Assembly: GCA_031548165.1 (NCBI GenBank)
Contig: JAVBRI010000001.1
Coordinates: 53,150 to 85,149, forward strand
Direction: 5' to 3'
Source: Lachnospiraceae bacterium
GTDB lineage: Bacteria; Bacillota; Clostridia; Lachnospirales; Lachnospiraceae
DNA: 32,000 bases
Position 1 is the first letter of the stretch. Every line of letters begins with the position of its first letter. Shown here one piece after another: positions 1,855-32,000 of this stretch. The translations under genes were made by a program, and so were the position numbers. Under the pieces are notes generated by a model. That model saw nothing but the letters and a program-made list of their open reading frames with translations, searched no databases and was not told the DNA's origin.

Positions 1855-2814
1855 ATGGAACTAATTAATTTTGATGAATACCAACAAAACAAAAGATTTT
1901 ATGGAGGGAGAGCAGGAAGGAAATTAGGAATTAATTATAACGGAGATAACTACATTATAAAGTTTGCAGAAAGTCTTAAAGAAAAAAATTTTAAAAACAT
2001 AAATCTTAGTTATTCCAATAGTCCGATAAGTGAATATATAGGATCACATATTTATGAAATATTAGGAAAAGATGTTCATGATACTATATTAGGAACAAGA
2101 GGGGGTAAACTAGTAGTTGCCTGTAAAGATTTCTGTGAAAATGGTGATGTTCTATACGAATTTGAAAAACTAAAAACAACATTTGAACCAAAGCTTTTAA
2201 ACATAGAGGGTGAGGTGACAAATGGAGAAGGCACAGAATTAGATATTGTTCTTCAGGTTATAAGAGAGCATCCAACATTAAGTAAAATTGATGGAGTAGA
2301 AGAGCACTTTTGGGATATGTTTGTAGTAGATGCCTTAATAGGAAATGGTGATAGAAACAATGGAAATTGGGGAATTATTATATCAAGTGATGGAACAGAA
2401 AAAATATCTCCTGTGTTTGATAACGGTAATTCATTAAATAATAAATGGGCTGATAAAAAAATGTTAGAAACATTACTTGACGAAAATTCAATAAGAACAT
2501 CGGCTTATAATGGAAGCGTTTGCATTTTTAAAAGAGATGAAAAAAGAATTAATCCATATCATATGTTGAAGAAACATGAATATACAGAATTAGATAATGC
2601 TCTTTTGAGAATGGTACCCCAAATAAATTTAAAAAGAAATGAGATAATAAATCTTATAAATGATATATCGATAATATCTAATACTAAGAAACAATTCCTC
2701 AATACTATTGTAGATACGAGGATTGACAATGTGTTAATACCATCCTATAATGAAATTAGTAAAAGTAAGATTGATATAGTGGAGCCGAGGTTGAATTTAA
2801 AAAGAGGTAGGTAA
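1855..2814 (+). CDS. HipA-like / CtkA-like Ser/Thr protein kinase
   Basis: Catalytic-loop-like motif 'DALIGNGDRNNGNWGII' (HipA_C-type GN.D.H/N..N), followed by 'FDNGNS'. RBS AGGAGG. No HipB-like HTH gene upstream. Confidence 0.55.
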   Translation: MELINFDEYQQNKRFYGGRAGRKLGINYNGDNYIIKFAESLKEKNFKNINLSYSNSPISEYIGSHIYEILGKDVHDTILGTRGGKLVVACKDFCENGDVLYEFEKLKTTFEPKLLNIEGEVTNGEGTELDIVLQVIREHPTLSKIDGVEEHFWDMFVVDALIGNGDRNNGNWGIIISSDGTEKISPVFDNGNSLNNKWADKKMLETLLDENSIRTSAYNGSVCIFKRDEKRINPYHMLKKHEYTELDNALLRMVPQINLKRNEIINLINDISIISNTKKQFLNTIVDTRIDNVLIPSYNEISKSKIDIVEPRLNLKRGR

Positions 2815-2847: not shown

Positions 2848-3060
2848 ATGTATATAGATGAAGAAGTAAAAATAGATTTTGAGGTTCCTAAATCTCTAAA
2901 AAATGATTTTGAAGAATTGCAAAAATATTATATTGCAAATGATTGGTTAAGCTATGCATTGCTTTATGAAGCCATGGAAAATTCAATTAAATGCTATTGT
3001 CTCACAGGAAAGTTGACAGATGATCAAGGAGATATATTGCTTAGCAAGTATCTTTGGTGA
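2848..3060 (+). CDS. Small acidic hypothetical protein (70 aa) immediately downstream of the HipA-like kinase
   Basis: ORF with AGGTGA 6 nt upstream of the ATG at 2848 (ORF track starts at the GTG at 2839). It ends just before hairpin copy A. Confidence 0.45.
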   Translation: MYIDEEVKIDFEVPKSLKNDFEELQKYYIANDWLSYALLYEAMENSIKCYCLTGKLTDDQGDILLSKYLW

Positions 3061-3082
3061 AAAATTATATAAATATTATATT

Positions 3083-3111
3083 AAAAATCCCTCGTGACGA
3101 GGGATTTTTTT
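3083..3111 (+). terminator. Hairpin family copy A (AAAAATCCCTCG-TGA-CGAGGGATTTTT plus T-run), bidirectional-terminator-like
   Basis: 12-bp stem with a 3-nt loop, an A-tract 5' and a T-tract 3'. It is one of 7 near-identical hairpins in the window. Confidence 0.75.
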
Positions 3112-3191
3112 GTGAAAAAGTATTAAAAGTGTTCAATCTTTTCTAAGTGTTTGTACTATTCTAAATAAAAAAAGAAAAGAGGAAAATTTAT

Positions 3192-5348
3192 ATGAGCAAA
3201 CCAAAAGCACTATTAATAGCAGAAAAACCCTCATTAATGAGAACTATTAAGTCTGTATATGAAAAGCATAAGGAAGAAGTTGATTATGAAATCGATTTCT
3301 TATCACAAGCAGGACATCTACTGACATTGAAAACACCTGATGAATTAGGTCTACAGGGAGAGGATAAAAAAACTAAACTTCCTATTTTTCCTGATGAAGA
3401 AAGTGGATGGCAGTATAAGTTAATACCAGGTGTAGAAAAATTGTATAATGATATAAAGGGAGCTATACAAAGCGGAAAATATGAGTATATTATTCATGCA
3501 GGGGATCCCGATAGGGAGGGACAATTACTGATAGACATTGTTTTGGATGCAGTTGATTGTGATAAGTATATAAGTAAGAGATTGAGGTTTTGGTCTAATG
3601 ATACAACGGAGACAACTGTTTTTAACGCACTTAAAAACATGGAAGATGGTAAAAACGTACATTTAATAAATCTAGGAAAGGCAGGAGTTGTAAGACAACA
3701 TTTTGACTGGTTATTTGGCATGAATGGAAGTAGTGCAGCAAGATTAAAAAGTAGAAAAAGAGAAGCTGTGGGAAGAGTCAAAACGGTAGTTGTTAAAATG
3801 ATTGTTGACAGAGAAGAAGAAATTAAAAATTTTAAGCCAAGAACAAAGTATAAAGTAGAAGTGTTGTATGTAAATGAGTTAAGATGTACAATGTTTAATC
3901 CAAAAGTAAAGGATGAAGGTGAAGAGGAATATAAAAAAGAAGATATTGGAATTGTATACTTTGAAACTGAGCAGGAAGCAAAAGCGTTTATTGAAAATAT
4001 AAAAAACATAGATAATGGAGTAGTAAAATCGGTTATTAGCAAAGAAAGTAAAACATATGCTCCAGAATTATATAAAATGTCATCTTTACAGGTAGATGCA
4101 TCAAATAAATATAATATAAGGCCAGATGATACACTAAGCATAGTACAATCGTTATATACTTCTGGATATATGACATATCCAAGAACGGATTGTGCATTAA
4201 TCAGTTCAAACACAGATTTCTATAAATTAATTAATGTTGTAGGAAAAATTGAAGATTATTCATTGTTTGCAACATCAGTTTCTGATGAAGATATTGCCAG
4301 AATAAAGAAGACAAAAACATATGTAAACGATGAAGAAATGGCAAAACATGGACATACAGGTCTTTGTCCTACAGAAAAAAGTCCAGATTTAGATAAGTTA
4401 AGCGAGAATGAGTTAAAGATTTATAAGCTTGTATGTAACAGGTTTTTAGCAATATTTTTAAAGCCTTTGGTACAGAGTAAAACCGAAATTATTACACAGG
4501 TTAACAAAGATGATAGTACATATTTATTTAAATGTAAAGGAAAGACATTGTTAAGCAAGGGATATACAGAACTCACAGGAGTAATGACTACAGACGTATT
4601 ATTACCTGTTGTTAAAGAAGGTGATTTAATACAAATACGTGAGTATGGAATTAGCTCAAAAACAACATCTTGTCCTTTAAGGTTTACTAATGCGTTACTG
4701 ATATCAGCAATGGAAACACCAGGTAAATTTTTTACTGATGAATCAATAAAAAATACTCATAAAAGTATAAAGCTTGGAACAGAAGCGACTAGGTCGGAGA
4801 TTATAAAAACGCTTATTGAAAAAGATAACTATTTACAGTATGTAAAGTCTGGTAAGAGTGAGTATATTATTCCAACTGAAAATGGTGTTTATCTAATAAA
4901 TATGCTTGGTGAATTAGATATTTGTAAAGTAGATATGTCTGCTCACTGGGAAGATGTTCTTGATCAAATTAAAGATGGGGAGTTATCTGTAAGTGAAGCG
5001 GAAATACAAGTAAAAAGAGCAGTTACAAAGCTAGTAGAAGATATAAGTAAAAGGGATATTGAACCAGCGCAAGGCAATAGTAAAAGTAAGAATTATGTGT
5101 GTGATTGTCCATGTGGTGGAGATATTATAGCAGCAGAAAAGAATTATTTTTGCAGTAACTATAAAAGTGGATGTAAGAATTCGATGTTTAAAAATTTTCT
5201 AGGTGCAACAATTACTAATAGTGATATGAAAAAGCTTATACAAGATAAAGGAACAATTATTAAGAAGCTTAAGAAAGATGCTTCTACGTGGGAACAGATA
5301 CTTAAGTATAGTTTTGAGGATCATAAATTAGAATTTTGCAAGAAATAA
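3192..5348 (+). CDS. topB: Type IA DNA topoisomerase (topoisomerase III-like)
   Basis: Toprim start 'ALLIAEKPS', 'DPDREGQ', active-site Tyr context 'GYMTYPRTD', and a C-terminal Cys-rich zinc-ribbon region 'CDCPCGG...FCSNYKSGCK'. Confidence 0.9.
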   Translation: MSKPKALLIAEKPSLMRTIKSVYEKHKEEVDYEIDFLSQAGHLLTLKTPDELGLQGEDKKTKLPIFPDEESGWQYKLIPGVEKLYNDIKGAIQSGKYEYIIHAGDPDREGQLLIDIVLDAVDCDKYISKRLRFWSNDTTETTVFNALKNMEDGKNVHLINLGKAGVVRQHFDWLFGMNGSSAARLKSRKREAVGRVKTVVVKMIVDREEEIKNFKPRTKYKVEVLYVNELRCTMFNPKVKDEGEEEYKKEDIGIVYFETEQEAKAFIENIKNIDNGVVKSVISKESKTYAPELYKMSSLQVDASNKYNIRPDDTLSIVQSLYTSGYMTYPRTDCALISSNTDFYKLINVVGKIEDYSLFATSVSDEDIARIKKTKTYVNDEEMAKHGHTGLCPTEKSPDLDKLSENELKIYKLVCNRFLAIFLKPLVQSKTEIITQVNKDDSTYLFKCKGKTLLSKGYTELTGVMTTDVLLPVVKEGDLIQIREYGISSKTTSCPLRFTNALLISAMETPGKFFTDESIKNTHKSIKLGTEATRSEIIKTLIEKDNYLQYVKSGKSEYIIPTENGVYLINMLGELDICKVDMSAHWEDVLDQIKDGELSVSEAEIQVKRAVTKLVEDISKRDIEPAQGNSKSKNYVCDCPCGGDIIAAEKNYFCSNYKSGCKNSMFKNFLGATITNSDMKKLIQDKGTIIKKLKKDASTWEQILKYSFEDHKLEFCKK

Positions 5349-24102: not shown

Positions 24103-24117
24103 CCCTCGTGCCGAGGG
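24103..24117 (+). repeat. Hairpin family copy D (CCCTCG-TGC-CGAGGG), no T-tract
   Basis: It sits 21 nt upstream of the parA start and is followed by AAAATGAAGAGGAG (the RBS). The start at 24108 in the ORF track would translate the hairpin. Confidence 0.65.
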
Positions 24118-24137
24118 AAAATGAAGAGGAGAAAAAC

Positions 24138-24932
24138 ATGAGGATACCAAGTATAGCATTTTTCAATGGTAAAGGTGGATGCGGAAAAACAACTGGACTA
24201 ATAAATATTGCAGGCGTTTTGGCAAATTCAGGTGAAAAGGTATTGGTTATTGACCTAGATAAACAACGAAATAGTACAGATACTTTTCTTCAATCCAATC
24301 AATCTGAATATGAGGATGGTAAAAGTAAAACATTGTATGATGTATTTTGTAAAAAAGCAAAAATTCAAGAGATTGTAAAAAAGGCTTATTTTGTAGGACT
24401 GAGGCAGAAAAAAGAACACTATTACAATATCGATGTCCTACCAGCAGATGTAAAGTTTCAAAATGAAAATAAGTTGAAATCATTAAAAGTAGATATTAAG
24501 AATGAACTGGAAGAATTTGTAGAAGAACAAGGCTATACATATATTCTGATAGATATGCCTCCATCAAATGAAATAATAAATCAAATATGCTTTTCGCAAA
24601 TAGCAAATAACGTAATTGTTCCATTTAGTCCAGACATCTTTAGTGTTACTGGTTATGGTGACTTGATGGAAATAATAAATGATGCACGAGAGATAAATGA
24701 AAATCTACGTATCATAGGAATTTATATATCTAGGTATAGAAATAGAAATGACAATATAAGAAAAGCTTTAGAGAATTTCGGAAGTATGTTTATTAATGAA
24801 GTACAGATTCCTTTTTCAGCACAAATTGAAGATACAATCTTGGAAGGACGTCCTATTAGTTATTTAAAAAGTAAAGGAAAGAGTAGAGAGGCATTTGAGA
24901 ATCTTGTTGTTGAAATCAAAAAAAGAATTTAA
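24138..24932 (+). CDS. parA: ParA/Soj-family partition ATPase
   Basis: Deviant Walker A 'FFNGKGGCGKTT' and 'ILIDMPPS'. RBS GAGGAG. Confidence 0.85.
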   Translation: MRIPSIAFFNGKGGCGKTTGLINIAGVLANSGEKVLVIDLDKQRNSTDTFLQSNQSEYEDGKSKTLYDVFCKKAKIQEIVKKAYFVGLRQKKEHYYNIDVLPADVKFQNENKLKSLKVDIKNELEEFVEEQGYTYILIDMPPSNEIINQICFSQIANNVIVPFSPDIFSVTGYGDLMEIINDAREINENLRIIGIYISRYRNRNDNIRKALENFGSMFINEVQIPFSAQIEDTILEGRPISYLKSKGKSREAFENLVVEIKKRI

Positions 24933-24976: not shown

Positions 24977-26197
24977 ATGGCAAAAGATTTAAGTAAACTT
25001 ACAAATGTAGTGAAGGATATATCAGCAAAAAGCTTTGAAAAAGCAAATGAAAAGAAGGTGGTTTGGATAAAGGATGAAAATCTATTAGACCATCCTTTAA
25101 ATGATGAGGACTTAACATACACTACGGATATTGAAGAGCATATAAAAACAGAAGGTTTTAGATATCCTCTAACAGTTACTAGATTTGGTATAGATGAAAA
25201 AGATAAGTATTATATTGTCTCTGGTCATAGGAGCCGTAAAGCAGGTAGGAAACTCGGAAAAGATGAGTTTCCATGCATAATTGAGGACTATGCTACAGAA
25301 GATGACGTCTACCATGCAATACTTACAGCTAATACGAGACGCAATTATGATCCACTAGATTTAGTATCAAGATATATAAAATGGAATAAGTATCTGGATA
25401 GAATTGGATATAAAGGAAGCAGAGCAGATGAAATAGGAAAACGTCTAGGTATATCGCCAAAACAAGCAGAAAAGTACAAGGCATTTACAAAAATAATACC
25501 TGAGTTTTGGCAACTTGTTAGAGAAAACGATGCAGCTAAAGATGGGCTATATCAACTTGCTCCAATGTCAGAAGAGAAGCAACATGAAATATTTAATTTA
25601 ATGGAAGAATGTAATCCAAGTAATGAAAAGATAACAGTATACTTTGAAAGAGATGTGATAGCAGCATATAGGTCAGGTATAAGAAATTATAAGGACTATC
25701 TTGAGTATATAAATGATAAGAATGAATTAAAACAAAATAAAGAGCCAGCTCATGTTAATAAAGAAACAAGTGTATTGACTGAAAGGGGTGGAACAGTAGT
25801 GAAAACTATTGATAATCAAGCAAGTCCTGTTTATGAAAAAATAGAAAAAGATGTTGCGAATAAATCAACTGAAGATTTTCCTATTATGTCTAAAGAAGAT
25901 ATGGAAGTTGCACAAAGTATAGGTGTTGATGATTCACTCAATAAGGATAATAATAAGGATGAAATAGTAATTAAAAAAGATACCATTAAAAATAAAAGAA
26001 GTGAAGAAACAAACGAAAATTATCAAGTAAAATCAAATGCATCAGAAATACTGAGAGATATGTCGGTTTTAATGTCAAAGATTAATCTTGATGGAAATTA
26101 TAAGTCAAAAGAAGATATTGATTTTATCTGTAAAATATCAAATAAGTTAATAGATAATATAGTGCTCGAACTTGAATATTTAAGCTTCAAAAAGTAA
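24977..26197 (+). CDS. parB: ParB/Srx N-terminal domain protein (partition DNA-binding protein) with a long low-complexity C-terminus
   Basis: 'YYIVSGHRSRKAGRKLG' (ParB GxRR-box variant), a downstream HTH-like 'EIGKRLGISPKQAEKY', and a position directly after parA. Confidence 0.7.
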   Translation: MAKDLSKLTNVVKDISAKSFEKANEKKVVWIKDENLLDHPLNDEDLTYTTDIEEHIKTEGFRYPLTVTRFGIDEKDKYYIVSGHRSRKAGRKLGKDEFPCIIEDYATEDDVYHAILTANTRRNYDPLDLVSRYIKWNKYLDRIGYKGSRADEIGKRLGISPKQAEKYKAFTKIIPEFWQLVRENDAAKDGLYQLAPMSEEKQHEIFNLMEECNPSNEKITVYFERDVIAAYRSGIRNYKDYLEYINDKNELKQNKEPAHVNKETSVLTERGGTVVKTIDNQASPVYEKIEKDVANKSTEDFPIMSKEDMEVAQSIGVDDSLNKDNNKDEIVIKKDTIKNKRSEETNENYQVKSNASEILRDMSVLMSKINLDGNYKSKEDIDFICKISNKLIDNIVLELEYLSFKK

Positions 26198-26239
26198 AAT
26201 ATAATGGATATAATATGCAAAAATATTTTTGAAAAATCA

Positions 26240-26268
26240 TTGACTTTTTTAGAGAAATTGCATATAAT
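26240..26268 (+). promoter_or_regulatory. Near-consensus SigA promoter driving the antitoxin RNA repeats
   Basis: TTGACT (26240-26245), a 17-nt spacer, then TATAAT (26263-26268). The first repeat begins about 13 nt downstream. Confidence 0.65.
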
Positions 26269-26280
26269 AAATACATAAAG

Positions 26281-26412
26281 ATGGTGTTTCTCTACCGAAG
26301 GCGTTGAAGTGAGAAAAGAAAAGTGTGGAGTTTCTCAGCCAAAGTCGTTGAAATGAGAAAAGATATGAGTGGTGTCTCTCTACCAAGGTCGTTGAAAGGG
26401 GAAACGATAACG
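26281..26412 (+). ncRNA. Type III antitoxin RNA precursor: three tandem 44-nt repeats (ToxI/CptI-like)
   Basis: The repeats occupy 26281-26324, 26325-26368 and 26369-26412, with a period of exactly 44 nt. The shared core is TGGnGTyTCTCnnCCnAnGnCGTTGAAnnGnGAAAnGA. Repeats 1 and 2 each contain TTTCTC...GAGAAA, which can pair. There is no ORF. The region lies between a promoter and a terminator, upstream of a ToxN-like gene. Confidence 0.75.
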
Positions 26413-26421
26413 ATTAGAAAA

Positions 26422-26457
26422 ATATGAGAAGCTTTTTATGCTTCTCATATTTTTTTT
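26422..26457 (+). terminator. Rho-independent terminator between antitoxin repeats and toxin gene
   Basis: Perfect 11-bp stem ATATGAGAAGC / GCTTCTCATAT, 7-nt loop, then a 7-T run. This is the architecture known to set the antitoxin:toxin ratio in type III TA loci. Confidence 0.75.
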
Positions 26458-26477
26458 GTTTAGGGGGGTGACAAAAG

Positions 26478-27143
26478 ATGAAGTTTAGTAACTTTGACTT
26501 TGTATACATTTCAGTTGATTATTTGAGAGAACTGCATAAAGCTGATTCGGAAGTGTTTTTTTCAGAAAATAGCAATTATGATAAAAAGCCACATTTAGGT
26601 GTTTTAGTTAATAATGAGGATAAGAAGTATGTGATACCTCTAACATCGGCTAAGCAAAAGCATAAAAAATGGGATAAGACTTCATTAACTTATTATTTGA
26701 TTTATGAACTAGTAAATATTGAAAAAACAAAGATAGGGGAAGAGGATGTGCTAACTGATGTAAGTAATTTGAAAATATTGACAGAAAGAGGTGTTTCAAA
26801 AAACGATTATTATAAGTATAAAAACCGTCTATTATCAGTATTAGAGATAAAAAAGATGTTTCCAGTAGCAGAAGGCACATATAAATATATTGATATGAAC
26901 AAGCAAGATGGGTTGAGTGAGAAGGAATTTAAGCAACTAGCCTTGCTTAAAAAGGAGTATTTATTTTGTAAAAAAATAGAAAAAGATATTGAGGAAAAGG
27001 CAAAGCAGATATATAATAAACAAGTAAAAACAAATAGAGTATTAAAATTTCATTGTGACTACAAAAAATTGGAGGAGGCATCCAAGCTTTATGTGGAAAG
27101 CATGGAAAATATAAGAGAAACTAGAATGAAAAAACATAGATAA
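26478..27143 (+). CDS. ToxN/AbiQ-family endoribonuclease toxin (type III toxin-antitoxin / abortive infection)
   Basis: 'MKFSNF...YISVDYLRELHKAD...KKPHLGVLVNNEDKKYVIPLTSAKQKHKKW' parallels the ToxN/AbiQ N-terminus (MKFY..., ...Y[LF]APL[ST]S.K.KH). The G-rich RBS GGGGGGTG lies 7 nt upstream. Confidence 0.75.
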   Translation: MKFSNFDFVYISVDYLRELHKADSEVFFSENSNYDKKPHLGVLVNNEDKKYVIPLTSAKQKHKKWDKTSLTYYLIYELVNIEKTKIGEEDVLTDVSNLKILTERGVSKNDYYKYKNRLLSVLEIKKMFPVAEGTYKYIDMNKQDGLSEKEFKQLALLKKEYLFCKKIEKDIEEKAKQIYNKQVKTNRVLKFHCDYKKLEEASKLYVESMENIRETRMKKHR

Positions 27144-27156
27144 AAGTATGGAGTAT

Positions 27157-27183
27157 AAAATCCCTCGTCACGAGGGATTTTTT
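27157..27183 (+). terminator. Hairpin family copy E (AAAATCCCTCG-TCA-CGAGGGATTTT plus T-run)
   Basis: The core is the exact reverse complement of the A/B core (loop TCA versus TGA), flanked by A and T tracts. Confidence 0.75.
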
Positions 27184-27185
27184 AG

Positions 27186-27214
27186 TTGAAAAAAATGTAA
27201 AATAATGGTATATT
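27186..27214 (+). promoter_or_regulatory. SigA-type promoter with extended -10
   Basis: TTGAAA (27186-27191), a 17-nt spacer ending in TGG, then TATATT (27209-27214). Confidence 0.5.
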
Positions 27215-27260
27215 GATAACTAATATAAAAAGTTTTGTAAAAAAATATGGAGGACAAGTT

Positions 27261-28262
27261 ATGAAAGATACAAATGATACAGGCATTGGTGTAATAGGAA
27301 TTGAGATGATAGTCATAGGAATACTTGTAGGTAAGGCAGTATATAGCTTTTTTGATTTATCATGGCAGTTAAGTACTCTTATTGCGATTTTTTCGGCAAT
27401 AGTATTTGTTACATTGTTAATGGTTAAGTATCTAGGTTTTGTTTTACAAGCAGGTATGAGTATTCTATTAACATATATTATTCTTGAGTTAATAGATAAA
27501 TTTTTTCATATGAGTGAAGATCTAAGTGAGAGACCAGTTGAGTTATGGATTATACGGATAGTAATCGGTATAATTGTTTTGTTAATACTAGAAGGGGTCC
27601 TATACATGTTAAAAAGAGATGACTATTCTAGAGACTCAAGTAAAACAACTACATACGTACATATAAAAACTGCAGATAATGTTATTTCAGGAGATTATAC
27701 TGAAGAAGATATTATTAAAGCTAGGGGACTTAGTATTATATCTGATATTATAAACAAGTTAGATAGTAAATACAAGGAAGTTGAAAGTATAGGGGAAAAA
27801 ATAAGAGAATTAGAGTTTAATGAAATGGCAATTGATAAGTTAAACGAATTTTTAAGTGAGTTTAATACAGGGTATAGAAAAATACTTGAGATAGCAGCGC
27901 CATACATGACTAAAGGGAGTTCTTACTTAGTATCTTCAATAAGTAACGATGTTAGTGAGTTAAATAAAAGATATAAAAATGTTGAAAATAGCGTAGAAGA
28001 TATGAAATCTTTAATAAGAGAAGCTGAAGTGCATAAAGAACAACGAGATAAAGAACAAAGGAAACATCAAGAAAGTACGAATAGAAAACAAGATGAGAAT
28101 CTAGATACTACATTGTTTGAAGGCTGTAATGACATCGAAAGTCTTTCAAAGAGGTATAAGAAGCTTATGCAGCTATATCATCCAGATAATATGGGTGGGG
28201 CGTCAGAAATGGCAAAGAAGATAAATAATACATATGACATTTTATGTAAGAAATATAGTTAA
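27261..28262 (+). CDS. Membrane-anchored J-domain (DnaJ-like) protein
   Basis: The ATG at 27261 follows GGAGGA (27249-27254). About 4 N-terminal TM helices, a central coiled coil, and an extreme C-terminal J-domain 'LSKRYKKLMQLYHPDNMGG..AKKINNTYDIL' with the HPD tripeptide. Confidence 0.7.
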   Translation: MKDTNDTGIGVIGIEMIVIGILVGKAVYSFFDLSWQLSTLIAIFSAIVFVTLLMVKYLGFVLQAGMSILLTYIILELIDKFFHMSEDLSERPVELWIIRIVIGIIVLLILEGVLYMLKRDDYSRDSSKTTTYVHIKTADNVISGDYTEEDIIKARGLSIISDIINKLDSKYKEVESIGEKIRELEFNEMAIDKLNEFLSEFNTGYRKILEIAAPYMTKGSSYLVSSISNDVSELNKRYKNVENSVEDMKSLIREAEVHKEQRDKEQRKHQESTNRKQDENLDTTLFEGCNDIESLSKRYKKLMQLYHPDNMGGASEMAKKINNTYDILCKKYS

Positions 28263-28311: not shown

Positions 28312-28875
28312 ATGGAAGCAATGATTCTAATGGAAGTATTAATTTTAGCAGTAGTAATTTATATAGCAATTAAGATAAAGAAGTGTGGGGAATCTAGCAA
28401 GGTAAAGGAAAGTAAGGGTCAAGAAACTAAAGATGATAGTATAGAAAAATATCCATATAAGAAGATAAAATTACTTACGGGTTCAGAATATGCATTTTAC
28501 ATGAAACTAAAGTTTAAATGTGATAAATATAATATGTTGATATGCCCAAAGGTAAGGCTAGAAGATTTTATAGATGTAACTTATGGATGGAGTATAAAAT
28601 ATAGATTACGTATCAGGTCAAGACATGTGGATTTTCTTATATGTGACAGTAAACTTAATATATTATGTGGAATAGAGTTAGATGGTGAATCTCATGAGAG
28701 CTATAAACAACAGAAAATTGATAAATTTAAAAACAACTTATTCCAAGTAATTAAAATACCATTACATAGAGTAAAGGTATCAGATGGAATTAAGTTTGAG
28801 GTTCATATAGATAGTATATTAGGAGAATATCAAACAGCACAAAAAGAAAAATTGGATAAGAATGAGCGAAAGTAG
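28312..28875 (+). CDS. DUF2726-like (restriction-endonuclease-fold) protein with an N-terminal TM anchor
   Basis: 'LTGSEYAFYMKL...ICPKVRLEDFIDV...RHVDFLICDSKLNILCGIELDGESH' matches the DUF2726 pattern (E...K-type nuclease-fold core VDF...IELDG.SH). Confidence 0.5.
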   Translation: MEAMILMEVLILAVVIYIAIKIKKCGESSKVKESKGQETKDDSIEKYPYKKIKLLTGSEYAFYMKLKFKCDKYNMLICPKVRLEDFIDVTYGWSIKYRLRIRSRHVDFLICDSKLNILCGIELDGESHESYKQQKIDKFKNNLFQVIKIPLHRVKVSDGIKFEVHIDSILGEYQTAQKEKLDKNERK

Positions 28876-29055: not shown

Positions 29056-29084
29056 TTGACAATATCCATAAAATATATTATAAT
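29056..29084 (+). promoter_or_regulatory. Consensus SigA promoter
   Basis: TTGACA (29056-29061), a 17-nt spacer, then TATAAT (29079-29084). It lies about 100 nt upstream of the 29185 CDS. Confidence 0.6.
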
Positions 29085-29184: not shown

Positions 29185-29892
29185 ATGGATAAGTTAAATG
29201 AACTTTTTAGACAGAATAAGAAAAGTGTGATAATAGCAGCGAGTGGAATACTTGCAATAGCTATATTGATGATATCGGTGGTTGTTACAAGTCAAGGAAA
29301 ATCAAAAAATGATGAGACTACAACAATAACAACAAAGGAAATAACAAAAGTTGATTCAAGTACAGAAGAAACAACAACATTTAAACAAGAAGAAACAACC
29401 ACAGAGAATACAACAACAATTCAGGAAACGACAACTCAAGAAGAAACAACTGTTAAAAAGGAAGATGTAACAACAGTAACTATTGTTGAAACACCAAAAC
29501 AGACTGAAACAGAAAAACAACAACAGCCACAAAGTGAAACACCAAAAGCAACTGAAGCTGAAACAACAACTCTTAATTTCAAAGATGGAGACATAGTTGT
29601 AGGAGATGCATTAATTGATTTGAATAAGGATAAAACAGATGGAGGAAAGTGTCCATATAAATTAAAAGAGATAACAACTAGAAAATATACAAATGGAAAT
29701 GGAAATTATACAACATACGAAGGATATTATGCTACATGGGAAGAAATAATGGGATTATTTGACTTACAAGATGAGCTTCTTGGTAAATATGGAATAATCT
29801 ATAATGAGCATGATAAATATGATGGATGGACTCAATTTGTTGGAAAGTATAATGAAGGAGAAATTCATTTTCTGTTTTACAAAATTAAATAG
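29185..29892 (+). CDS. Membrane-anchored/exported protein with a Thr/Glu-rich linker
   Basis: N-terminal TM/signal anchor 'VIIAASGILAIAILMISVVV', about 90 aa of ETTT-type low-complexity linker, and a globular C-terminal domain. RBS AAGGAGG. Confidence 0.6.
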   Translation: MDKLNELFRQNKKSVIIAASGILAIAILMISVVVTSQGKSKNDETTTITTKEITKVDSSTEETTTFKQEETTTENTTTIQETTTQEETTVKKEDVTTVTIVETPKQTETEKQQQPQSETPKATEAETTTLNFKDGDIVVGDALIDLNKDKTDGGKCPYKLKEITTRKYTNGNGNYTTYEGYYATWEEIMGLFDLQDELLGKYGIIYNEHDKYDGWTQFVGKYNEGEIHFLFYKIK

Positions 29893-29927: not shown

Positions 29928-30019
29928 GTTATGTATAGAAAGTATTAAAAGTGCACCACCTATTTTAACTTTAATATCTATTATATAGAGATAAAGTAAA
30001 AAAAAGGAGGAAAAATCAA

Positions 30020-32000
30020 ATGTTAAAGAAAAGAAAAACGCAAATAGTAACTATGGTAGTATTTATTGTATGTATTTTTTTAAGTAATTCTTATAAAGTA
30101 AGTGCAGCAGTAGATGAAGAAGACTTTTCAAGAACTATTACAATTAGTTTAAATGGTGGTACAGGAAGTAGAGTGGATTGGATAACATATGTAGATAGAA
30201 CTGGAGTTGGATATACCGTGGGTCATTCATTTCCAGGACTTGCAGTTGGAAAAACAGTACTTGATAAATATTATGTTGCACATACTATTATAGGTTATAG
30301 TGATAGCCAGACACCTATCATTGGAACATTTAAACAACATACAGATTGCATAGGAGTAACTCCATATGTTTATATCACGGAACCAACCAGAATAGGTTAT
30401 ACGTTTAATGGATGGAGTTCAAATACTACGGCAATAAAAGATTCATCATACTGGAGGTTCGAGTGTGGCTGCTATGCTGCTAGTAGTGGGAACATTACAA
30501 TAACAGCACAATGGGCAGCAAATACATATAACATAGCTTACAATGGAAATGGGTACTCTGGAGGAAGCACAGCCAACTCATCACACACCTATGGAACAGC
30601 CAAAACATTAACAGCCAATGGCTACACTCGAACCGGCTATACATTCAAAGGTTGGAATACAAAAGCAGACGGAAGTGGAACAAGTTATAGTAACAGTCAG
30701 TCAGTATCAAACCTTACAACAACCAGTGGAGCAACCATAACACTTTATGCTCAATGGACAGTAAATACATACATAGTAGCCTATAGTGGTAATGGAAATA
30801 CTGGAGGAAGTACAGCAAGTTCATCACATACCTATGGAGTAGCTAAAACATTAACAGCAAATGAGTTTACTCGAACAGGTTATACATTTACAGGCTGGAA
30901 TACGAAAGCTGATGGAAGCGGAACTAGTTATAGCAATAGTCAGTCAGTATCAAACCTAACATCAACAAATGGAGCAACAGTAACGCTTTATGCACAATGG
31001 TCAGTAAATACATACACAGTAGCATATAACGGAAATGGGAGTACTGGAGGAAGCACAGCGAGTTCATCACACACGTATGGAACAGCCAAAGTATTGACAA
31101 CAAACGGATTTACACGAACAGGATATACATTTAAAGGTTGGAATACAAAAGCCGATGGAAGTGGAACGAGTTACAGCAATAGTCAGTCAGTATCAAACCT
31201 AACAACAGCTAATGGAGGAACAATAACACTGTATGCTCAATGGACAGTAAATGCATATACAGTAGCATATAATGGTAATGGAAGTACAGGTGGAAGTACA
31301 GCAAGCTCATCGCATACCTATGGAACGGCTAAAACATTAACAGCTAATGGATATACACGAATAGGTTATACATTTAAGGGTTGGAATACAAAAGCCGATG
31401 GAAGTGGAACAAGTTACAGCAATAGTCAGTCAGTATCAAACCTAACAGCAACAAATGGAGAAACAATAACCCTATATGCTCAATGGACAGTAAATACATA
31501 TACCATAGTCTATAACGGAAATGGAAATACCGGAGGAAGCACAGCGAACTCATCACACACCTATGGAACAGCTAAAACATTGACAGCCAATGGCTACACA
31601 CGAACCGGTTATACATTCAAAGGCTGGAACACAAAAGCAGATGGAAGCGGGACAAGCTACAGCAACAGTCAGTCAGTATCAAACCTAACAGCCACAAACG
31701 GAGCAACCATAACACTATATGCTAAGTGGTCAGATGAAACAGCTCCTACAATTACTGCAGATGTTAATCCGGCCAGCTGGACCAATCAAAATGCAATAGT
31801 GACAGCTTCAGGAACTGATAATGGATCAGGAATAAAATGTGTCACTATCAATATAGGAAATGAAATGGTTTCTTATGGTACAGTAACTGCACAATATCCA
31901 CAGACATCAGAGGGAATAGTTACATATACTGCAATAGTAGAGGATAATGCCGGAAATAAAAGTAGCAAAAATGTTACTGCCTATGTAGATAAATCAGCGC
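30020..32000 (+). CDS. Large secreted surface protein with Listeria-Bacteroides (Flg_new / InlB B-repeat) type repeats, 3'-truncated by the window edge
   Basis: This ORF is absent from the ORF track because it has no stop before the window end. My own translation from the ATG at 30020 (RBS AGGAGG at 30005) gives the signal peptide 'MLKKRKTQIVTMVVFIVCIFLSNSYKVSAA'. Repeated units follow, of the form 'NTY.VAYNGNG.TGGSTASSSHTYG.AKTLTANG(Y/F)TRTGYTF.GWNTKADGSGTSYSNSQSVSNLT..NGATITLYAQW'. After them comes 'ETAPTITADVNPASWTNQNAIVTASGTDNGSGI'. Confidence 0.8.
   Translation, partial: MLKKRKTQIVTMVVFIVCIFLSNSYKVSAAVDEEDFSRTITISLNGGTGSRVDWITYVDRTGVGYTVGHSFPGLAVGKTVLDKYYVAHTIIGYSDSQTPIIGTFKQHTDCIGVTPYVYITEPTRIGYTFNGWSSNTTAIKDSSYWRFECGCYAASSGNITITAQWAANTYNIAYNGNGYSGGSTANSSHTYGTAKTLTANGYTRTGYTFKGWNTKADGSGTSYSNSQSVSNLTTTSGATITLYAQWTVNTYIVAYSGNGNTGGSTASSSHTYGVAKTLTANEFTRTGYTFTGWNTKADGSGTSYSNSQSVSNLTSTNGATVTLYAQWSVNTYTVAYNGNGSTGGSTASSSHTYGTAKVLTTNGFTRTGYTFKGWNTKADGSGTSYSNSQSVSNLTTANGGTITLYAQWTVNAYTVAYNGNGSTGGSTASSSHTYGTAKTLTANGYTRIGYTFKGWNTKADGSGTSYSNSQSVSNLTATNGETITLYAQWTVNTYTIVYNGNGNTGGSTANSSHTYGTAKTLTANGYTRTGYTFKGWNTKADGSGTSYSNSQSVSNLTATNGATITLYAKWSDETAPTITADVNPASWTNQNAIVTASGTDNGSGIKCVTINIGNEMVSYGTVTAQYPQTSEGIVTYTAIVEDNAGNKSSKNVTAYVDKSA
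30521..31735 (+). repeat. Five in-frame tandem 243-bp (81-codon) repeats inside the surface protein gene
   Basis: Unit starts (AAT ACA TA.) fall at 30521, 30764, 31007, 31250 and 31493. DNA identity between units is high, with long identical runs such as AGTCAGTCAGTATCAAACCT. Confidence 0.85.

Follow-up and report, generated by a model that had tools for sequence, protein, structure and literature searches.

A probable, apparently intact ToxIN (type III) toxin-antitoxin module beside parA- and parB-like genes on a conjugative element of a Lachnospiraceae bacterium

Identity and layout of the locus

The 32-kb stretch of Lachnospiraceae bacterium contig JAVBRI010000001.1 analysed in this study (hereafter the window, meaning the whole 32,000 nucleotides) very probably carries, at positions 26240-27186, a complete and apparently intact ToxIN (type III) toxin-antitoxin module, in which an array encoding an RNA antitoxin precedes the gene for an endoribonuclease toxin. 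The elements follow one another on the forward strand in the order promoter, three 44-nt repeats, terminator hairpin, ribosome-binding site (RBS), open reading frame (ORF) of 221 aa and second terminator. The operon anatomy, the family and fold of the toxin, its predicted catalytic residues and a covarying pseudoknot in the repeat units were all observed or computed here. Type III loci have been defined operationally as tandem repeats followed by a terminator and then by a ToxN homologue (PMC5086642), and the locus falls within this definition because its ToxN homologue has a terminator and tandem repeats 5' of it. The family, its architecture, the range of its repeat lengths and its occurrence in Lachnospiraceae have been documented since 2012; the locus is therefore a further example of a known family.

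The features of the module are as follows.

26240-26268, forward strand: sigma-70-type promoter; TTGACT (26240-26245), 17-nt spacer, TATAAT (26263-26268); 11 of 12 consensus matches
26279-26322, forward strand: ToxI-like unit 1; stem 1 UGGUG (26282-26286) with UACCG (26293-26297), stem 2 UCUC (26289-26292) with GAGA (26311-26314)
26323-26366, forward strand: ToxI-like unit 2; stem 1 UGG (26326-26328) with CCA (26339-26341), stem 2 UCUC with GAGA, intact
26367-26417, forward strand: ToxI-like unit 3 and its 3' tail; stem 1 UGGUG with UACCA, stem 2 UCUC with GGGA (one G-U pair), tail CGAUAACGAUUAG
26416-26458, forward strand: Rho-independent terminator at the boundary between array and toxin gene; 17-bp stem, 7-nt loop, U run; -20.5 kcal/mol, z = -6.9
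26463-26468, forward strand: RBS GGGGGG, 9 nt 5' of the ATG, read from the sequence
26478-27143, forward strand: toxN, predicted ToxN/AbiQ-family endoribonuclease toxin, 221 aa
27157-27186, forward strand: operon-closing terminator; 11-bp stem AAAUCCCUCGU/ACGAGGGAUUU and U run; -17.1 kcal/mol, z = -4.4

A first-pass annotation, made from the letters of the DNA, had described a near-consensus promoter, three head-to-tail 44-nt repeats with no coding potential, a strong intrinsic terminator and a G-rich RBS before a 221-aa ORF, and each of these elements was recovered. Its broader proposal of a type III module beside parAB is likewise supported by the family and fold of the toxin, the catalytic residues, the layout and the covarying pseudoknot; ParA- and ParB-like genes lie upstream.

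The toxin is a ToxN/AbiQ-family protein

The resemblance of the 221-aa ORF to ToxN/AbiQ, for which the first-pass annotation had suggested a profile search as a check, was borne out by that search: the protein matched the Pfam family ToxN_toxin (PF13958) at E 1.1e-33, with 117 bits against a cut-off of 25 and over profile positions 2-159 of 159, and it matched the PADLOC AbiQ model at E 3e-23. Sequence matches in the PDB were to 4ATO (ToxN of Bacillus thuringiensis, the best match, E 7e-8), 7D8O (Escherichia coli ToxN), 4GLK (AbiQ) and 2XD0 (Pectobacterium atrosepticum ToxN). The same four proteins headed a Foldseek search with an AlphaFold2 model that was made from 24 subfamily sequences (predicted local distance difference test, pLDDT, 92.9; predicted template-modelling score, pTM, 0.85), namely 2XD0, 7D8O, 4ATO and 4GLK, with E between 7.5e-9 and 1.8e-7 and a target-normalised template-modelling score (TM) of 0.81. 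The type III toxin CptN (4RMO) ranked fifth (E 2.6e-4, TM 0.58, 14% identity), and MazF proteins were far behind.

Pairwise alignment to the ToxN of plasmid pECA1039 (22% identity, E 4e-9) placed K37, T56, S57 and K59 of the window toxin opposite K33, T52, S53 and K55 of ToxN. These four ToxN residues have been named as catalytic in the work on the E. coli ToxIN structure, with K33, T52 and K55 needed for toxicity (PMC8860590). The corresponding four residues are invariant in an alignment of 24 subfamily members and are predicted to be catalytic here; overall, all 34 of the 34 residues that are invariant in the subfamily are present in the window toxin.

The protein had been described as about 50 aa longer than ToxN. 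The extra length is real and is made up of an insertion of 34-40 aa (approximately residues 78-116) together with a longer C-terminal helix, but it is a trait of the whole subfamily and is not peculiar to this locus. In the AlphaFold2 model the insertion follows a strand whose end lies near residue 78 and forms a short strand and two short helices, with pLDDT of 94-97. It is common to the entire subfamily of 204-214 aa, which is frequent in gut Clostridia (183 matches, with one cluster found on at least 1000 contigs). A coupling between this insertion and a longer RNA loop was considered and rejected: toxins of 207-208 aa occur with units of 38-41 nt (loci L003, L007 and L008), and toxins of 188 aa occur with repeats of 52 nt (L020, L024 and L026).

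The repeat array encodes three ToxI-like units

The repeat array comprises three 44-nt units that span positions 26279-26410. Tandem Repeats Finder (TRF) reported a period of 44 nt with 2.9 copies at 26277-26404, 78% matches and a score of 158, whereas the maximum score over 100 dinucleotide shuffles of the 32-kb window was 87 (for periods of at least 20). No ORF of 40 aa or longer runs across the array on the forward strand, and a search of the window for further ToxI-like units returned only the three of the array.

Within each unit, two short stems can form an H-type pseudoknot in which the loop of a first hairpin pairs with a downstream sequence. In unit 1 the loop between stem 1b and stem 2b is 13-14 nt long and the unit ends in an A-rich 3' tail, AAAGAAAA. 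The internal TTTCTC/GAGAAA pairing that had been noted for repeats 1 and 2 is real in these two units; the companion statement that repeat 3 is degenerate did not hold, as both stems are kept in all three units, which makes three complete units.

Covariation in homologous loci

The structure of the units was compared across 79 genomic loci with genes for relatives of the toxin, with the 450 nt upstream of each toxin gene inspected; the hosts of these relatives are gut Clostridia. In most of the loci TRF detected a tandem array (period 37-53 nt, 2-3.7 copies) that ended 36-98 nt 5' of the start codon. The loci without a TRF call still hold arrays, of units unequal in length, as in L002, where units of 56, 46 and 56 nt follow one another and the linker of the long units contains an extra hairpin. 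A pattern search found chains of two or three units of 36-56 nt in approximately 60 of the 79 loci, directly upstream of the terminator and toxin gene. The units share a common form: GGYG is followed by a loop of six bases and YRCC, then by a linker that varies, a complement of the loop and an A/U-rich tail. Between loci, the loop co-varies with its downstream partner: the UUUCUC/GAGAAA of the window is replaced elsewhere by AUUCCC/GGGAGA, CCAC/GUGG, CUGC/GCAG or AUCAGC/GCUGAU.

For a quantitative comparison, 27 distinct units of 44-46 nt were aligned, nearly free of gaps (one single-base deletion, in unit 1 of L012), and pairs were scored between columns 4-8 and 15-19 for stem 1 and between columns 9-14 and 33-38 for stem 2. 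Of the pseudoknot cells, 90.2% were paired, compared with 79.2% in shuffles (none of 500 shuffles reached the observed value) and with 36-68% when the partners were slid by one to three columns. Changes on both sides of a pair, that is compensatory changes, were seen at four pairs, and the pair of columns 13 and 34 appeared as AU, UA, GC and CG and was never unpaired. The pair of columns 10 and 37 was mostly unpaired; stem 2 is therefore effectively 4 bp long and is preceded by a loop of 2-3 nt. In an alignment-free test of 109 distinct units of all classes, 83 contained the exact complement of their own stem-2a tetramer downstream, whereas tetramers taken from other units found a complement in 17.8%; most of the failures were G-U pairs, for example CCGC with GUGG. 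The check for covariation of the repeats in homologous loci that the first-pass annotation had proposed thus found both stems to covary, and because they do so the repeat unit is assigned, on comparative sequence grounds, as a ToxI-like H-type pseudoknot with single-stranded tails.

The correspondence of units 1, 2 and 3 by position was weak in closely related loci (0.81-0.84 for the same position and 0.74-0.78 across positions) and absent for the window.

Several arrays of unlike units were observed among the closest relatives (L002, L004, L005, L067, L003, L007, L008 and L044) and had been overlooked by TRF. Some combine 56-nt units that carry an extra hairpin in loop 1b-2b, UAAUCUUUGAGAUUA, with 46-nt units that lack it, and in others the third unit has a wholly different but self-compensated stem 2 (AUCAGC/GCUGAU). 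Sporomusa ovata DSM 2662 has two near-identical toxIN loci (L038 and L041) approximately 6 kb apart on its chromosome (505911-518803), each with a 38-nt array of 3.4 copies and a toxin of 215 aa. Above-threshold Rfam matches also occurred near some toxIN loci, namely skipping-rope RNA at 2482-2567 of L010 (upstream of the array) and 3048-3131 of L052 (downstream of the toxin gene), and DUF3800-I RNA at 4536-4648 of L046.

The neighbourhood of the array bears on a different explanation of the repeats. Directly upstream of the module lie two genes with similarity to plasmid partition functions:

24108-24932: ParA ATPase; PF13614, E 4e-32
24977-26197: ParB-N protein, a weak match; E 3e-4, under the Pfam cut-off

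The repeats could accordingly be thought to act as DNA, as a centromere of parS-like direct repeats or as iterons belonging to the adjacent parA and parB, with the neighbouring toxN a coincidence. The array starts only 80 nt 3' of the parB-like gene, and plasmid centromeres commonly consist of short tandem direct repeats beside parAB. However, the repeat architecture is shared by approximately 60 loci with toxN homologues, and within 3 kb of the 79 related loci a ParA match was found at none and a weak ParB-like match at one. Additionally, compensatory base-pair changes reflect selection on RNA structure, and a promoter and a terminator bracket the array exactly. A partition site is hence extremely improbable, and this explanation was rejected in favour of an RNA antitoxin.

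Transcription and translation signals

The promoter at 26240-26268 is the top-scoring site of its region, and only four sites with at least 11 of 12 consensus matches occur on the forward strand of the window. A gap of 14 nt separates the end of its -10 hexamer from the GGUG of unit 1. A similar placement was found in the homologous loci, where a promoter-like site (at least 9 of 12 matches) lay no more than 70 nt upstream of unit 1 in 50 of the 59 loci with an array, compared with 5 of 59 for a control region, and where the distance from the -10 hexamer to GGNG was usually 13-16 nt. The promoter scan found no site of comparable strength between the array and the ATG of the toxin gene.

The hairpin at 26416-26458 was not picked up by a simple terminator scan; an equivalent G+C-rich hairpin was seen in every homologous locus that was read. 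It would fix the surplus of RNA relative to the toxin message. At the distal end of the operon, the terminator portion of a sub-threshold Rfam match to Phe_leader falls at 27157-27186.

Assignment to the ToxIN family

The locus belongs to the ToxIN family, with a 'Group II' ToxI, in which the loop is long (13-14 nt). In the survey of Blower et al. 2012 (NAR 40:6158), Table 2 gives toxIN loci repeats of 31-62 nt in 1.9-5.6 copies and toxins of 70-288 aa; the three 44-nt repeats and 221-aa toxin of the window are ordinary for toxIN because they lie inside these ranges. The same authors aligned 39 unique ToxI sequences to the canonical ToxI repeat as template. In this alignment the sequences were 31-46 nt long and had 3-4 bp per stem, 3-4 nt in loop 1a-2a and 1-2 nt in loop 2a-1b. 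Two groups were distinguished by loop 1b-2b, which has no more than 7 nt in Group I and exceeds 7 nt in Group II. Group II members from Clostridiales and Lachnospiraceae are catalogued there, and the hosts of the group include many Lachnospiraceae, Ruminococcus and Roseburia. The window unit conforms to the Group II pattern, also in its stem 2 of 4 bp, which covaries, and in its loop 1a-2a of 2-3 nt. In the literature, no sign was found that Group II members have been tested experimentally.

The first-pass annotation had favoured a cptIN-like system; in such a system the RNA would form a CptI-type pseudoknot and a 2:2 heterotetramer. The 44-nt period is indeed close to the cptIN mean of 44.8 nt (range 40-48 nt; Blower et al. 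2012, Table 2), and the relatives are hosted by gut Clostridia. Repeat length does not discriminate, however, as 44 nt also lies inside the toxIN range, and the toxin points clearly to ToxN: the window protein was matched by sequence to four ToxN/AbiQ chains and, even with E allowed up to 10, not to 4RMO, its fold is closer to ToxN/AbiQ (E of approximately 1e-8, TM 0.81) than to CptN (E 2.6e-4, TM 0.58), and the only Pfam family and PADLOC model matched were those of ToxN and AbiQ. Moreover, the unit has the GGUG...UACC core of ToxI. The toxin evidence and the RNA layout together effectively refute assignment to CptIN, for which the probability is minimal.

Integrity of the module

Several observations weigh against the assignment as an intact ToxIN module. 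The toxin shares only approximately 22% identity with any ToxN of characterised structure or function, its 34-40-aa insertion could affect RNA binding, and a literature search found no experimental work on the clostridial subfamily of 204-221 aa. On the RNA side, stem 1 of unit 2 is weakened, with the inner A-G and G-A positions of GGAG/AGCC unpaired, and thermodynamic folding of single units restricted to nested pairs gave energies no better than those of shuffles (z = +0.65, -1.1 and -0.1). The pseudoknot therefore rests on covariation and not on energy; poor nested-only folding is expected for a pseudoknot with 4-bp stems and is hence uninformative. The unit alignment is also short, and because many of the aligned loci are closely related, the shuffle statistics overstate their independence. 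Finally, toxicity, cleavage, inhibition and stoichiometry are attributed to this locus by analogy with its family, as are processing of the RNA, defence against phages and plasmid addiction.

A decayed or domesticated remnant, in which the toxin has lost its toxicity or is no longer neutralised by the diverged units and which has no present function, would be compatible with some of these features. The units are 78% alike and thus more diverged than in many relatives (96-100% identity in L015, L016, L038 and L052), unit 2 has its weakened stem, and truncated toxins beside intact arrays do occur in the family (Blower et al. 2012), with L044 apparently one such case. Against decay, the ORF is full length and retains the 34 invariant subfamily residues as well as the four catalytic residues, the promoter, RBS and both terminators are intact, both stems are kept in all three units, and a toxic gene without a functioning antitoxin would not stay intact. 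A remnant is accordingly regarded as improbable, and an intact ToxIN module remains the preferred interpretation.

In L044 itself (Oribacterium sinus DSM 17245), the frame of the toxin gene at approximately 3001-3613 seems to be interrupted: extension of the ORF gives 124 aa, while tblastn aligns residues 1-205, and a complete three-unit array lies upstream. This locus may represent a toxin pseudogene with its antitoxin retained.

Proposed mechanism and role

The mechanism proposed here is drawn in all its steps by analogy with characterised ToxIN systems (PMC5086642, PMC8860590). A constitutive promoter would give rise to a transcript of three tandem 44-nt ToxI-like units, most copies of which would end at the strong hairpin terminator, so providing a surplus of the RNA, while read-through would encode the ToxN-family endoribonuclease. 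The toxin would then cleave the repeat transcript in the single-stranded A-rich tails between units, the likely site of cleavage being a conserved stretch, GA(U/A)A(A/U), that separates stem 2b from stem 1a of the following unit; reported cut sites in family members are AA/AU, A/AAAA, A/AAA or within GAAAU (PMC5086642, PMC8860590). Each released unit would adopt an H-type pseudoknot fold, with stem 1 formed by (U)GGUG and UACC(R), stem 2 formed by pairing of the hairpin loop with downstream sequence (UCUC/GAGA), and a conserved 14-nt loop between stem 1b and stem 2b. Such pseudoknots could bridge toxin monomers into a closed, inactive protein-RNA complex. If the supply of RNA fell, either because the element is lost or because a phage shuts off host transcription, the labile RNA would decay and the freed toxin would be expected to cleave cellular and phage RNAs.

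The canonical ToxIN complex is a 3:3 triangle, and the complex of this subfamily may depart from it, either with three different RNAs in set positions or with another stoichiometry. Such an assembly is conceivable because the subfamily combines a conserved toxin insertion with a 14-nt loop 1b-2b that is likewise conserved and with arrays that hold exactly three units, which are not identical; several relatives have units with differing, individually compensated stem-2 sequences or with extra loop hairpins. A parallel is offered by CptIN, in which a longer RNA gives a 2:2 complex. A departure from the triangle is nevertheless thought unlikely; if it were true, it would represent a new assembly variant among type III systems.

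The window has a G+C content of approximately 30% and encodes conjugation functions (a relaxase, a coupling protein, a VirB4-like ATPase, PrgI and an NlpC/P60 hydrolase) as well as topoisomerase III, RadC, ParA and a ParB-like protein. Because the module adjoins parA and parB on a conjugative element, it would most likely serve from day to day to maintain that element through addiction, with abortive infection of phages as a possible second role. A likely addiction and/or phage-defence module would thereby be added to the maintenance region of the element (parA, parB and toxIN), which bears on the persistence of the element. No near-identical copies of the 1-kb module were found in PLSDB plasmids or GenBank phages.

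Annotation of the two halves

The module had been called probably unannotated. For the toxin this is not the case, as its homologues are named in RefSeq as 'type III toxin-antitoxin system ToxN/AbiQ family toxin', with 'protein AbiQ' also used by sources; the further remark that the RNA half would be missed is sound. Standard annotation would thus name the toxin, and it would not name the RNA. With Rfam 15, neither the window nor the arrays of 20 homologous loci gave a match that reached threshold. A sub-threshold match to RAGATH-35 at 26208-26313, covering the promoter and unit 1 (21.1 bits against a gathering threshold of 38.9, E 0.4), is probably due to chance, and no paper mentioning RAGATH-35 was found in the literature. 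Even the founding ToxI array of pECA1039 gives no match in Rfam 15 at E up to 1; this class of RNA antitoxin is therefore without a usable Rfam model. In the RefSeq record of pECA1039 (NC_011767.1), a coding sequence for a 'hypothetical protein' is drawn over the ToxI array at 1714-1935 (872-1093 of L080).

The RNA half of type III systems is consequently invisible to annotation based on ORFs and on Rfam, and this locus provides a practical example. While the locus itself opens no new question, the unit alignment and the covarying pseudoknot could seed a covariance model for the Group II ToxI RNAs of gut Clostridia.

Other features of the window

Directly downstream of toxN, a forward-strand gene at 27213-28262 encodes a predicted membrane protein of 349 aa, whose very C-terminal end gave its only match, to part of a DnaJ domain (E 1e-5, under the cut-off), and it is followed at 28312-28875 (forward strand) by a gene for a DUF2726 protein (E 1e-20). 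Neither gene lies beside toxN in the 79 related loci.

Further downstream, an open frame of at least 675 aa begins near 29975 on the forward strand and runs past the end of the window (29975-32000). The last 2 kb of the window have a G+C content of 38%, compared with approximately 30% elsewhere, and strong promoter-like sites at 29056 (12 of 12 matches) and 29125 (11 of 12) precede the frame. Short tandem repeats with periods of 22, 21 and 27 (TRF scores of 62-69) occur at 29487-29569, 29681-29747 and 30569-30621; the first two lie inside a 235-aa ORF at 29185-29892 that has no Pfam match, and the third lies inside the long frame.

At the other end of the window, a 319-aa ORF at 1855-2814 (forward strand) has a weak match to the HipA C-terminal kinase domain (E 3e-5, under the Pfam cut-off) and could represent a second toxin-like gene of the element. 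A promoter with 12 of 12 consensus matches was found at 2723, within the 3' end of this ORF.

Comparison with known type III systems

The closest well-characterised counterparts are the ToxIN systems of P. atrosepticum plasmid pECA1039 (ToxI of 36 nt in 5.5 copies, ToxN of 171 aa; 2XD0/2XDD) and of E. coli (7D8O). Operon order, the fold of the toxin (TM 0.81) and the K/T/S/K catalytic residues are as in the window. The canonical ToxI repeat, found at 100% identity in pECA1039, reads AGGUG-AUUUGC-UACCU-UUAAGU-GCAG-CUAGAAAUUC; its GGUG, downstream-pairing loop and UACC, its H-type pseudoknot and its single-stranded A-rich tails are matched by the predicted form of the window unit. The window toxin differs from these ToxN proteins in being only 22% identical and in having the 34-40-aa insertion and the longer C-terminal helix. 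Its RNA unit is 44 nt long and not 36 nt because loop 1b-2b, which is conserved (RAAGNCGUUGAAR), has 14 nt and not 7 nt. In addition, the window has three non-identical units in place of 5.5 near-identical ones, and it is carried by a low-GC conjugative element of Firmicute type.

The ToxIN of B. thuringiensis pAW63 (4ATO) and the AbiQ/antiQ system of Lactococcus lactis (4GLK) are Gram-positive, plasmid-borne ToxN-family systems, with approximately 2.8-2.9 repeats that, at about 34-35 nt, are shorter than those of the window. Their toxins are also shorter (chains of 172-194 aa) and are without the insertion of the window toxin. Both phage abortive infection and plasmid retention have been shown for these systems, and their toxins cleave at A/AAAA and A/AAA (PMC5086642).

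Lastly, the CptIN system of Eubacterium rectale (4RMO) is likewise a type III system of gut Clostridia and resembles the locus in repeat length (40-48 nt) and copy number, but its toxin is of a different family, with no sequence match and only a weak fold match (TM 0.58) to the window toxin. The CptIN RNA adopts a different type of pseudoknot, in a complex that is a 2:2 heterotetramer (PMC5086642). Overall, the locus resembles the pECA1039 and E. coli systems in operon order, toxin fold and ToxI core, and differs from them in its longer toxin and in its longer, fewer and non-identical RNA units.

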